Source: a virus (Duplodnaviria; Heunggongvirae; Uroviricota; Caudoviricetes). Taken from it: a stretch of 11,820 nucleotides of DNA. Below are positions 10,052 to 10,463 of this stretch, piece by piece (the first letter of the stretch is position 1; each line of letters begins with the position of its first letter). The position numbers and the translations under genes are program-made. The notes beneath the pieces were generated by a model. The model was given only the letters and a program-made list of their open reading frames with translations, did no database searches and was not told the DNA's origin. The stretch lies in the IMG/VR virus record IMGVR_UViG_2690316131_000005. The stretch is one strand, 5' to 3'.

Positions 10052-10080
10052 AAAACCCGCCCACAAGCGGGTTTTGTTGT
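10052..10080. terminator. intrinsic terminator hairpin just downstream of Q
   Basis: 9-bp stem AAAACCCGC/GCGGGTTTT with 6-nt loop, followed by TTGTTGT; minus-strand view also has a T-rich tail, so it may be bidirectional. Confidence 0.6.
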
Positions 10081-10145
10081 GCCACTTATCTCGGATAGAC
10101 ATGGTGAATGCGCTGGTGGAGGAGATAAGGGTGATTTTTGTATGC

Positions 10146-10174
10146 TTGCAACATTGATTTCGTAACGTTATTAT
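10146..10174 (+). promoter_or_regulatory. near-consensus sigma70 promoter directly upstream of the tRNA cluster (pR'-like candidate)
   Basis: TTGCAA (10146-10151), 17-bp spacer, TATTAT (10169-10174); predicted start about 10181, 3 nt before the first tRNA 5' end. Confidence 0.6.
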
Positions 10175-10183
10175 CCTGCGCCC

Positions 10184-10259
10184 GGCCCTTTAGCTCAGTG
10201 GTGAGAGCGAGCGACTCATAATCGCCAGGTCGCTGGTTCAAATCCAGCAAGGGCCACCA
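10184..10259 (+). tRNA. tRNA with anticodon CAT (Met, or Ile2-type if lysidine-modified)
   Basis: Cloverleaf folded by hand: acceptor GGCCCTT/AAGGGCC, D-arm GCTC-AGTGGTGA-GAGC, anticodon loop CTCATAA, T-arm GCTGG-TTCAAAT-CCAGC, discriminator A, encoded CCA. Very similar to E. coli tRNA-Ile2 from memory. Confidence 0.85.
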
Positions 10260-10260
10260 A

Positions 10261-10336
10261 CCGCCACTAGCCATCAGGAAAGAGCGTCAACCCTTTAAGT
10301 TGAGTGTGCGAGGTTCGAGTCCCCGGTGGTGGTCCA
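10261..10336 (+). tRNA. atypical tRNA-like element (possible pseudo-tRNA); anticodon loop CCTTTAA
   Basis: Acceptor CCGCCAC/GTGGTGG (C1-G72, one G-U pair), good anticodon stem TCAAC/GTTGA, T-loop TTCGAGT with one A-C mismatch in the stem, encoded CCA; but the D-stem pairs at only 2 of 4 positions and position 33 is C. Confidence 0.4.
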
Positions 10337-10349
10337 TTATCGGTATTCT

Positions 10350-10423
10350 GCGTTGTTAGCTCAGCAGGACAGAGCAATTGCCTTCTAAGCAATCGGTCAC
10401 TGGTTCGACTCCAGTACAACGCG
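10350..10423 (+). tRNA. tRNA-Arg (anticodon TCT, reads AGA)
   Basis: Acceptor GCGTTGT/ACAACGC, D-arm GCTC-AGCAGGACA-GAGC, anticodon stem ATTGC/GCAAT with loop CTTCTAA, T-arm ACTGG-TTCGACT-CCAGT, discriminator G; CCA not encoded. Confidence 0.85.
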
Positions 10424-10439
10424 CTACACTTATTTTCCC

Positions 10440-10463
10440 GGCTCGCTTTTGCGGGCCTTTTTT
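10440..10463 (+). terminator. intrinsic terminator after the tRNA cluster
   Basis: Stem GGCTCGC/GCGGGCC (one G-U pair), loop TTTT, followed by TTTTTTG. Confidence 0.6.

Follow-up and report, generated by a model that had tools for sequence, protein, structure and literature searches.

Where does Q act in the late control region of this prophage, and how is the cluster of tRNA genes immediately downstream of Q related to that site? A first interpretation, made from the letters alone (the sequence-only reading), had proposed that the tRNAs fill the leader of the late promoter itself, with pR' at 10146-10174, tR' at 10440-10463, and Q acting on RNA that begins 3 nt ahead of ileZ, the first tRNA gene. 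We addressed the question in the window, that is, the whole 11,820-nt stretch of Caudoviricetes virus record IMGVR_UViG_2690316131_000005. Our results favor another arrangement, to which we assign a probability of about 0.85: an E. coli prophage of the Qin/PPompW-like lambdoid type in which a phage-82-type Q gene is followed by two nested transcription units. Direct observation underlies the features collected in Table 1, the degree to which they are conserved, the limits of the modules, and the assignment to families.

Table 1. Features of the Q-tRNA region (window coordinates)
Feature	Positions	Strand	Basis
Q antiterminator gene, phage 82 (Q82) family	9299-9988	+	Pfam PF06323, E = 1e-90
Predicted late promoter pR', TTGCAA-17-TATATT	9972-10000	+	Promoter scan; conservation in Q82-family phages
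pR' -35, TTGCAA	9972-9977	+	
pR' spacer (17 nt)	9978-9994	+	
pR' -10, TATATT	9995-10000	+	
Predicted pR' initial transcribed region	10007-10032	+	Sequence reading; register as 82 pR' (PMC5001585)
Predicted pR'-tR' leader RNA, ~75 nt, diverged IsrJ relative	10007-10084	+	Fold; sub-threshold Rfam match
tR', predicted intrinsic terminator of short late leader	10046-10084	+	Fold; scan; position match to 434
Spacer between tR' and tRNA promoter, no convincing feature	10085-10144	+	Fold; homology
Predicted tRNA cassette promoter, TTGCAA-17-TATTAT	10146-10183	+	Scan; homology; conservation
Cassette promoter -35	10146-10151	+	
Cassette promoter -10	10169-10174	+	
GC-rich discriminator CCTGCGCCC	10175-10183	+	
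tRNA-Ile2, anticodon CAT (ileZ)	10184-10259	+	ARAGORN (as Met-CAT); Rfam tRNA, 72.5 bits
Lys(UUU)-type tRNA allele in argN slot	10261-10336	+	ARAGORN, Lys-TTT
tRNA-Arg, anticodon TCT (argO)	10350-10424	+	ARAGORN; Rfam, 68.1 bits
Predicted intrinsic terminator closing the cassette	10440-10463	+	7-bp stem with 6 GC pairs, then TTTTTTGT; fold

The predicted late promoter at the end of Q

The Q protein of the window matches PF06323, the Pfam entry for the Q82 family (PMC9388147); over 229 aa, it shares 76% identity with the Q of phage 82 (X92588). In LC567818, a 100% identical record, the gene is labeled late gene regulator Q; a search of solved structures returned no meaningful match to this protein. 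At the 3' end of the gene, a sigma-70-type promoter overlaps the Q stop codon (9986-9988). The motif is present in 78 of 80 IMG/VR relatives, and the remaining 2 contigs stop at the Q stop codon. Its spacer contains positions common to Q82-family phages (AAAAnTnnATT). The phage 82 record itself ends at the Q stop codon with the same TTGCAAAACTGGATTAA, which limits direct comparison with 82 pR' to the -35 hexamer and part of the spacer; the rest of the likeness is taken from the features described in PMC5001585 and from the 434 and PhiR47_2 sequences. Since the Q-binding element (QBE) of phage 82 sits between -35 and -10 (PMC4914094), the pR' spacer is where such an element would be expected here. 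Other promoter-like sites lie inside Q, among them one at 9891-9920; they lack conservation as noncoding elements and were therefore set aside as coincidental.

The initial transcribed region of 82 pR' carries an extended -10-like element engaged at a transcript length of 21, GCC at +15-17, and U at +25 (PMC5001585). The window has these elements in the same register. With +1 set at A10007 (AAA), 7 nt past the -10 hexamer, TGaTATTTT (10012-10020) occupies +6 to +14 and GCC (10021-10023) falls at +15-17, followed by an AT-rich stretch with T at +25. From this register we infer a start at A10007 and a sigma-70-dependent pause at U+25/A+26 (10031-10032). The promoter, spacer, and AAATCTGATAT are kept in 434, PhiR47_2, CobraSix, phiES15, a Klebsiella phage, and the Gifsy-1 isrJ locus, and in these relatives a nonhomologous hairpin with a T run follows the promoter and pause element. 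The upstream unit is retained in phages of this family that have no tRNAs downstream (434, PhiR47_2, and phiES15). The sequence-only reading had itself named the region around 9989-10050 as one where a rival late promoter might be mapped, and, as far as comparative evidence allows, a late promoter does lie at about that place.

The predicted tR' hairpin and leader RNA

RNAfold predicts two hairpins in 10007-10090 (-29.6 kcal/mol; z = -4.3; none of 200 shuffles folds as well). The second, at 10046-10082, has a 12-15 bp stem and ends in UUUUGUUGUG; the hairpin terminator noticed earlier at 10052-10080 is therefore real as a predicted structure, with slightly wider limits. The aligned hairpin of phage 434 is annotated as "terminator" 49-74 nt past the Q stop codon, and all Q82-family relatives compared have a hairpin and T run at this position, with differing stem sequences. 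The hairpin and U tract at 10046-10084 also match the IsrJ terminator in position. We assign this element as tR' because the pR' upstream of it matches the features of phage 82 pR' in register. The U tract of the window (TTTTGTTGTG) is a minority variant found in 9 of 73 copies, most of which have T6-T7, and its interruption (UUUUGUUGUG) may make termination leaky.

A different role for this hairpin must be weighed, namely, that it ends early, pR-derived transcripts or insulates in both directions against leftward transcription, with the real tR' being the cassette terminator or an element further downstream. Our pattern scan indeed reports the hairpin on the minus strand only, a call that we attribute to the A-rich 5' arm, which gives the element symmetry and makes it look two-way, and several terminators are common in lambdoid late regions (in the window, for example, the scan finds one at 11397-11415). 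Yet the hairpin lies 40-78 nt past the predicted pR' start, as do the terminators of 434 and IsrJ, and every Q82-family relative has a hairpin and T run at that distance despite the differences in sequence. Moreover, the roles are not exclusive, as a tR' hairpin can also end unmodified early transcripts. We consider it very improbable that 10046-10084 is something other than tR'.

Transcripts from pR' that stop at tR' would form a leader of ~75 nt. The Rfam isrJ model (RF01393) aligns over its full length to 10004-10076 with 20.5 bits (E = 0.077 in a 201-nt search), below the gathering score of 37 bits, and at the same position after Q in CobraSix it scores 62.6 bits. In Gifsy-1 isrJ, the promoter and the first ~11 nt are the same as those of the window leader. 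By position and in part by sequence, then, the window leader is a relative of IsrJ rather than a scored member of the family. Matches of other Rfam models at 10005-10078 (OrzO-P, 27 bits; isrK, 19 bits; STnc370) were rejected, as they are driven by the terminator hairpin and fall far under threshold. IsrJ is a stable short RNA of Salmonella lysogens that has a start site of its own and ends at a Rho-independent terminator (PMC4825925), and StxS is a constitutive, terminated by-product of a late promoter (PMC7547250). IsrJ appears to be what Q82-type late promoters produce as their leader RNA. A broader proposal is tentative and, on balance, doubtful: that the ~75-nt leader is the E. coli counterpart of IsrJ, the latter being a terminated Q82-type pR' leader, and that it acts as a constitutive, possibly Hfq-binding, StxS-like regulatory sRNA in the Q82-type prophages widespread in E. 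coli.

The tRNA cassette and its probable promoter

Homology to Stx2 phages starts at 10145, exactly at the -35 of the tRNA promoter, and extends to ~10475; from the -35 to just past the terminator, the window and the Stx2-phage cassette are ~95% identical. On sequence grounds, the unit at 10145-10475 belongs to the ileZ-argN-argO type known from Stx prophages and other lambdoid ones. Its ileZ and argO genes are intact, the argN slot is taken by an allele of the Lys(UUU) type, the cassette is placed as in Sp5 and F349, and promoter and terminator are both there as conserved sequence elements. The tRNAs do form a promoter-to-terminator unit of their own directly downstream of Q, as had been claimed. 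The 60 nt preceding it, where we sought a second structured element or terminator, fold no better than shuffled sequences (z = -0.74); this spacer is common to Evi, FRIK2455, and Santai and is absent from Sp5 and F349. In relative L087, Q, pR', and the hairpin are retained; divergence sets in as soon as the U tract ends, and the cassette is absent. Cassette matches occur in 3162 of 5426 complete E. coli genomes, and strains E2865, H19, and 2013C-3964 show 100% identity to the window across 9960-10480.

The cassette with the same promoter is found behind Q genes of three families: Q82-type (the window), Q21-type (Sp5 and F349), and Q-lambda-type (Evi). It can therefore not be a Q-specific site, and the Q-specific element must be located upstream of the hairpin. 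Evi has the hairpin, spacer, and cassette in common with the window, and a lambda-type pR' (TAAATT ... AACGATGGG) and pause element lie in the equivalent place.

The cassette promoter TTGCAA-17-TATTAT was correctly recognized by the sequence-only reading, although "near-consensus" overstates it: like pR', it matches 9 of 12 consensus positions. In this AT-rich region there are 9 such matches in 2.8 kb, against 2.9 +/- 1.6 expected; for this reason, the match alone is no proof of a promoter. Both hexamers are kept in 86 of 86 cassette copies from fetched loci, the sole change being TTGCAG in Sp5, a count that is not an independent measure of conservation because the search pattern was anchored on the hexamers. 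They are likewise kept in an unanchored alignment of seven cassettes, and the motif is present in 77 of the 80 relatives surveyed. Across cassette copies the 17-nt spacing is kept, while the letters of spacer and discriminator vary. The predicted start, at ~10180-10182, precedes the tRNA at 10184 by 2-4 nt, in agreement with the 3 nt first estimated. The GC-rich discriminator would be compatible with stringent-type control, and constitutive synthesis of the tRNAs from this promoter is plausible.

Differential RNA-seq of Sp5 places the PR' start just after Q and tR' 258 nt downstream, with a separate primary (TEX-enriched) tRNA start between tR' and stx2AB, upstream of the tRNAs (PMC7547250). 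On locus L003, likewise, 258 nt separate the predicted PR' start from the terminator U tract. In Sp5, the homologous TTGCAG-17-TATTAT lies 10 nt upstream of ileZ and probably drives the separate tRNA start; the published coordinates were placed on NC_002695.2 with an assumed version offset of 142 nt.

Could 10146-10174 nonetheless be a promoter look-alike, the tRNAs arising only as products cut from the Q-antiterminated late transcript after induction, or from leakage through tR'? Its 9/12 score and the frequency of such matches in the region would fit, as would the -35 of Sp5, which matches at only 3 of 6 positions, and the interrupted U tract of the window's tR'. Against this stand the preservation of hexamers and spacing in all cassette copies examined amid a varying spacer and discriminator, the module boundary exactly at the -35, and the primary tRNA start in Sp5. 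In addition, a dedicated terminator after argO is sensible only for transcripts that are not antiterminated. We regard the look-alike explanation as unlikely.

The identification of the cassette as the pR'-tR' short-transcript unit fares worse. It is true that the cassette spans promoter to terminator just downstream of Q and that pR' leaders can be long, as the 258 nt of Sp5 illustrate. However, the tRNA begins at about +3, and a -10-like pause element and a binding element specific for the resident Q were not found in 10146-10463; the same promoter and cassette follow Q proteins of three unrelated families, each of which requires a binding site of its own. The phage-82-type promoter and pause element stand in correct register upstream, at 9972-10032, and are retained by the tRNA-free phages of the Q82 family. 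Furthermore, the tRNA start of Sp5 is apart from PR', downstream of tR'. That the cassette promoter is pR' is thus hardly credible, and we place pR' at 9972-10000 and tR' at 10046-10084.

ARAGORN supports the three tRNA-like genes noticed earlier, one of which is probably crippled. The first is annotated as ileZ or tRNA-Ile in Sakai and by PGAP and has at most one substitution across all seven aligned cassettes; argO annotation is found in Sakai and F349. The middle gene (10261-10336) has no Rfam tRNA match even at E <= 1. It differs from intact Lys alleles (GCTC D stem), which score 37-44 bits and are annotated as tRNA-Lys, in lacking 1 nt of the D stem, and PGAP leaves it unannotated in E2865, an identical genome. 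The deletion, which occurs in 12 of 39 Lys alleles surveyed, probably inactivates the gene, leaving two sound tRNA genes and one crippled one. The closing terminator was rightly identified as well: its GC-rich stem (10440-10457) and the following TTTTTTGT are kept in all Ile-x-Arg cassettes.

Cassette tails vary among prophages (Ile-Arg-Arg, Ile-Lys-Arg, Ile-Lys-Thr-Gly) behind a constant promoter and ileZ head. One tail tRNA has C at position 33 and could, as a speculative reading, be an argN derivative whose anticodon shifted to Lys(UUU).

Two proposed nested transcription units and their known relatives

In the model that we favor, pR' would be constitutively active from ~A10007. RNA polymerase still carrying sigma-70 would pause around +25 at the extended -10-like element (10012-10020), with GCC directly behind it. 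If Q is absent, the polymerase would stop at tR' and release the ~75-nt leader. With Q engaged at the promoter-spacer element, it would turn terminator resistant and pass tR', the tRNA cassette with its terminator, and further terminators into the late genes. The read-through into late genes that had been proposed therefore has a place in this model, with its origin at the upstream pR' instead of the tRNA promoter.

The second unit would be the autonomous cassette at 10145-10475, with its sigma-70 promoter and GC-rich discriminator, ileZ (AUA), the damaged Lys(UUU)-type allele at the place of argN, argO (AGA), and a dedicated terminator. From its promoter, the lysogen would obtain rare-codon tRNAs independently of Q, and its terminator would keep unmodified transcripts out of the downstream late-region genes. 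After induction, tRNAs could additionally be cut from the Q-antiterminated late transcript. The start sites, the pause, the efficiency of termination, the dependence on Q, and the function of the tRNAs are predictions of the model, and both terminators are predicted by homology.

Lambdoid and Stx prophages are already known to carry tRNA cassettes in the interval from Q to the late genes and to make pR'-tR' leaders constitutively. What changes is the map, in which the predicted Q-responsive site spans 9972-10084 and the tRNA unit becomes a separate insert downstream. The corrected map matters for the annotation of such regions and for sequence-based prediction of expression from the late-gene or toxin slot. 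Two by-products may be worth a short follow-up, namely, IsrJ as a Q82-type leader and the variable cassette tail behind a fixed promoter and ileZ.

Among known systems, the late region of phage 82 is the closest counterpart of the first unit. Besides the related Q, the two have the same -35 hexamer in the same position with respect to the Q stop codon; the extended -10-like element, GCC, and U+25 described for 82 pR' (PMC5001585) occur in the window's register, and the predicted terminator of the window is close behind. In contrast, the spacer and leader of the window differ in sequence from those of 434, PhiR47_2, and 82 (the pR' spacer reads AAGTAGATTGAAAGGCA in the window and AACTGGATTAAAAGCCA in 434), and, unlike the phage 82-type region, the window leader has an extra 5' hairpin and an interrupted U tract. 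Lambda 6S RNA, StxS, and IsrJ are of the same kind as the predicted leader at 10007-10084, and not of the kind of the tRNA unit; StxS is unrelated to the window leader in sequence, and IsrJ of Salmonella Gifsy-1 has diverged from it.

For the second unit, the nearest relatives are the cassettes of the Stx2 phages 933W, Sakai Sp5, and Stx2a_F349. The tRNA genes of this cassette were reportedly first described in 933W by Plunkett et al. in 1999. In these phages, ileZ is first and argO last, the same order as in the window, and the cassette lies between tR' and stx2AB, just as it lies downstream of Q and tR' here. The middle slot holds argN(UCG) in Stx2 phages but the Lys(UUU)-type allele with the D-stem deletion in the window, and the flanks differ as well: upstream, the Q is of the Q21 family in Stx2 phages and Q82-type in the window; downstream, stx is replaced in the window by a TerB-family pseudogene and a DUF3927 gene. 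Finally, we take the cassette to be a "moron"-like insert, a label borrowed from the general concept, which has no defined family test. Like morons, it brings a promoter and a terminator with it, sits between phage modules that are conserved, and is present or absent among near-identical phages (as in L087); whereas morons carry protein cargo, this cassette carries tRNA genes.

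Predicted late promoter and leader terminator

The tRNA genes downstream of Q had been read, from the sequence alone, as filling the unit between pR', the Q-responsive late promoter, and tR', the terminator closing its leader. This identification is wrong. Our analysis places pR' at 9972-10000 and predicts that the hairpin read as the left edge of the unit is tR'; the tRNA unit would then be a moron-like insert that lies downstream of this terminator. A late promoter elsewhere was the alternative that the sequence-only reading had itself set against its proposal, and it is the one that the comparative evidence favors.

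Q (9299-9988) belongs to Pfam PF06323, the Q82 family (PMC9388147), and is 76% identical to phage 82 Q over its full length. A second promoter-like site, TTGCAA-17-TATATT, overlaps its stop codon at 9972-10000. We set +1 at 10007, an A that opens the triplet AAA and lies 7 nt beyond the -10. The transcribed sequence then reads AAATC-TG-A-TATTTT-GCC-GATTTTG-T, in which positions +6 to +14 form a TG-extended -10-like hexamer, +15-17 are GCC, an AT-rich stretch comes next, and +25 is T. At phage 82 pR', sigma engages the -10-like element at a transcript length of 21; this element is nearer consensus than that of lambda, with "an extended -10 sequence," and is followed by a GCC discriminator at +15-17, an AT-rich region, and a pause at +25/+26, with U at +25 (Bird et al., PMC5001585). 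Because promoter geometry fixes the register, which was not fitted, the agreement may be regarded, at the level of sequence, as a genuine test that the window passes. The GenBank record of phage 82 ends at the Q stop, where the same -35 and spacer start are visible (TTGCAAAACTGGATTAA). On the minus strand, TTGCAACACTTTGC (9964-9977) fits the CII-binding consensus TTGY-N6-TTGY; this candidate site overlaps the palindromic -35 TTGCAA of pR', and the annotation of phage 434 marks the homologous site as a CII site and the -35 of paQ.

We aligned the post-Q region of six phages: 434, PhiR47_2, a Klebsiella prophage, Enterobacter CobraSix, Cronobacter phiES15, and Gifsy-1. The Q82-family phages aligned share the -35, parts of the spacer (AAAAnTnnATT), the -10, and AAATCTGATAT; in phage 82, the Q-binding element lies in the spacer (PMC4914094). 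A hairpin and T run then follow in each, with a stem sequence that differs from phage to phage, and the curated 434 record lists this hairpin as a terminator, lying 49-74 nt past the Q stop codon. No downstream tRNA genes occur in 434, PhiR47_2, or phiES15. The pR' motif is present in 78 of the 80 IMG/VR contigs whose Q is at least 97% identical; the remaining two stop at the Q stop. One relative, L087, retains Q, pR', the pause element, and the hairpin; similarity ends right behind the U tract, and the unrelated sequence beyond lacks the cassette.

The hairpin itself is real, as had been proposed: folding 10007-10090 with RNAfold yields -29.6 kcal/mol (z = -4.3) and places a terminator-like stem at 10046-10082, which ends in UUUUGUUGUG. 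Its U tract in the window (10069-10078) reads TTTTGTTGTG, a variant found in 9 of 73 relatives, while most close relatives have six or seven unbroken T; the interruption might make this tR' leakier.

A self-contained tRNA cassette

The tRNA unit is a known, self-contained cassette. In an alignment with the Stx2 phage Stx2a_F349, near-identity starts exactly at the -35 hexamer (10145) and runs through the terminator to ~10475, and there is no similarity upstream of 10145. In F349 and the Sakai prophage Sp5, also an Stx2 phage, three genes annotated ileZ, argN, and argO lie between Q and stx2A. All four features named in the sequence-only reading are present. The promoter TTGCAA-17-TATTAT is present, but its match to consensus (9 of 12 positions) is weak evidence alone, since a scan returned nine sites of that quality in 2.8 kb against ~3 expected. 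ARAGORN finds all three tRNA-like genes; the tRNA model of Rfam supports the first and third but gives no hit to the second even at E<=1. The second intrinsic terminator, a GC-rich 7-bp hairpin followed by a T run, also stands.

Features of the tRNA cassette and of its Sakai Sp5 counterpart (L003)
Feature	Coordinates	Basis
Cassette promoter	10146-10174	TTGCAA-17-TATTAT
tRNA-Met(CAT)	10184-10259	ARAGORN; Rfam tRNA model, 72.5 bits
tRNA-Lys(TTT)	10261-10336	ARAGORN
tRNA-Arg(TCT)	10350-10424	ARAGORN; Rfam tRNA model, 68.1 bits
Second intrinsic terminator	10440-10463	Hairpin and T run
Sakai promoter-like site at Q stop	L003:1012-1039	
Sakai terminator	L003:1280-1304	U tract 258 nt from predicted start
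Sakai cassette promoter	L003:1428-1456	TTGCAG-17-TATTAT, 10 nt before ileZ

The cassette also lies behind the Q21-family genes of Sp5 and F349 (PF06530) and behind the Q-lambda-family gene of phage Evi (PF03589). In Evi, the lambda-type Q precedes a late promoter and pause signal resembling those of lambda, TTGATT...TAAATT...AACGATGGG, and homology to the window begins at the terminator hairpin and continues through the spacer and cassette. The Q-family-dependent element therefore lies upstream of the hairpin; hairpin, spacer, and cassette are, judging from these alignments, exchangeable. Being common to three unrelated Q families, the cassette promoter cannot be the cognate Q-loading site of each.

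Among the fetched loci, 86 cassette copies have a promoter that fits a hexamer-anchored pattern; since the pattern demanded the hexamers, this count is no independent measure of conservation. The sole hexamer change was TTGCAG in Sp5, with spacer and discriminator positions varying, and an unanchored alignment of seven cassettes agrees on conservation. The motif is present in 77 of the 80 relatives, and a search of 5426 complete E. coli genomes found cassette-like sequence in 3162, at up to 14 places in one genome. The GC-rich discriminator of the cassette promoter, CCTGCGCCC, resembles those of host stable-RNA promoters, which suggests putative growth-rate or stringent control.

Sakai transcripts have been mapped by dRNA-seq and Term-seq (Sy et al. 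2020, PMC7547250), and the distance from the start predicted at the Q stop to the terminator U tract matches the spacing in that study, which for Sp5 also reported a separate primary start of the tRNAs, between tR' and stx2AB. Together with the promoter homologue before ileZ, this mapping makes Q-independent tRNA synthesis from the cassette's own promoter a reasonable idea, with indirect experimental support in a homologue. The proposal of an autonomous, probably constitutive unit is thus retained. In a lysogen, pR' would yield a leader of ~75 nt ending at ~10080, and the cassette promoter would yield ileZ, the damaged Lys-type gene, and argO in a transcript ending at 10463. Upon induction, polymerase modified by Q at pR' would pass tR', the cassette and its terminator, and a terminator at 11397-11415, proceeding toward the late genes.

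Variable tRNA tails

Behind the constant promoter and ileZ, the tails of the 80 relatives differ: Ile-Lys-Thr-Gly in 37, Ile-Arg-Arg in 23, Ile-Lys-Arg in 11, and a few rarer arrays, so the argN slot is variable. U is near-universal at tRNA position 33. The Lys(UUU) allele (10261-10336; L011:901-977; L012:918-994; L010:2723-2799) keeps the backbone of argN but differs in the anticodon loop, which is CCTTTAA with C at position 33, and in the anticodon stem, where the changes are compensatory; the sequence suggests that the anticodon shifted from Arg(UCG) to Lys(UUU). Intact Lys copies score 37-44 bits and are annotated as tRNA-Lys by PGAP. In the window, the D stem of this gene is one T short (GC-C versus GCTC), a deletion found in 12 of 39 Lys alleles surveyed; PGAP skips it in an identical genome, and it is probably dead. 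Other Q82-type phages carry unrelated arrays, such as Asn-Phe-Thr-Arg in a Klebsiella phage (L007) and a single Arg tRNA in CobraSix and Gifsy-1.

Genomic setting and relation to known leader RNAs

The 11.8-kb window represents the junction of the early-right and late regions in a lambdoid prophage of E. coli that is Qin/PPompW-like. The part of it used for the search, 9250-10513, has 100% identity to "PPompW" prophages (LC5678xx records, annotated in the order dicA, dicC, replication genes, hok/gef, rem, ydfU, rusA, Q, three tRNAs), and 9960-10480 is 100% identical to chromosomes of strains E2865, H19, and 2013C_3964. PPompW identity stops at 10513. A ten-G run (10507-10516) lies between the tRNA terminator and a TerB-like gene, and ISEc20 (IS110 family) is inserted at this run in LC567818 and related PPompW prophages. 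The region that follows (10599-11195, 11511-11820) is the slot of stx in Stx phages. It holds the TerB-family gene, which has internal stops (a pseudogene according to PGAP) and is intact in O157:H7 FRIK2455, and a small DUF3927 gene; the start of a SASA-family carbohydrate esterase gene comes after them. An Rfam STnc100 match at 11200-11372 (100.8 bits; gathering score, 47) precedes the strong terminator at 11397-11415; members of this family are also present in phages 434 and Evi and, in Sp5, downstream of stx2B.

All elements here belong to well-described kinds, and novelty is low; the shuffled tRNA tail and a link to the Salmonella sRNA IsrJ are modest side observations. Right after Q, the Rfam isrJ model scores above threshold in CobraSix (62.6 bits; L009:2706-2779) and below it in PhiR47_2 (30 bits) and the window (20.5 bits; 10004-10076). 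Gifsy-1 isrJ (100 bits; L005:4015-4121) has the same TTGCAA-17-TATATT upstream and the same AAATCTGATAT start, with an isrK/C4/orf45/anrP module inserted between Q and isrJ. IsrJ is described, in the available part of the Gifsy-1 paper (PMC4825925), as a short, stable RNA that has a start site of its own and ends at a Rho-independent terminator; that part does not state a link to a Q82 leader. IsrJ appears to represent the terminated leader RNA of a late promoter of the Q82 type, and these data are experimental support, in a relative, for a short terminated RNA from this promoter type in lysogens. They also suggest that, for Q82-type phages, IsrJ is what 6S RNA is for lambda and StxS for Stx phages.
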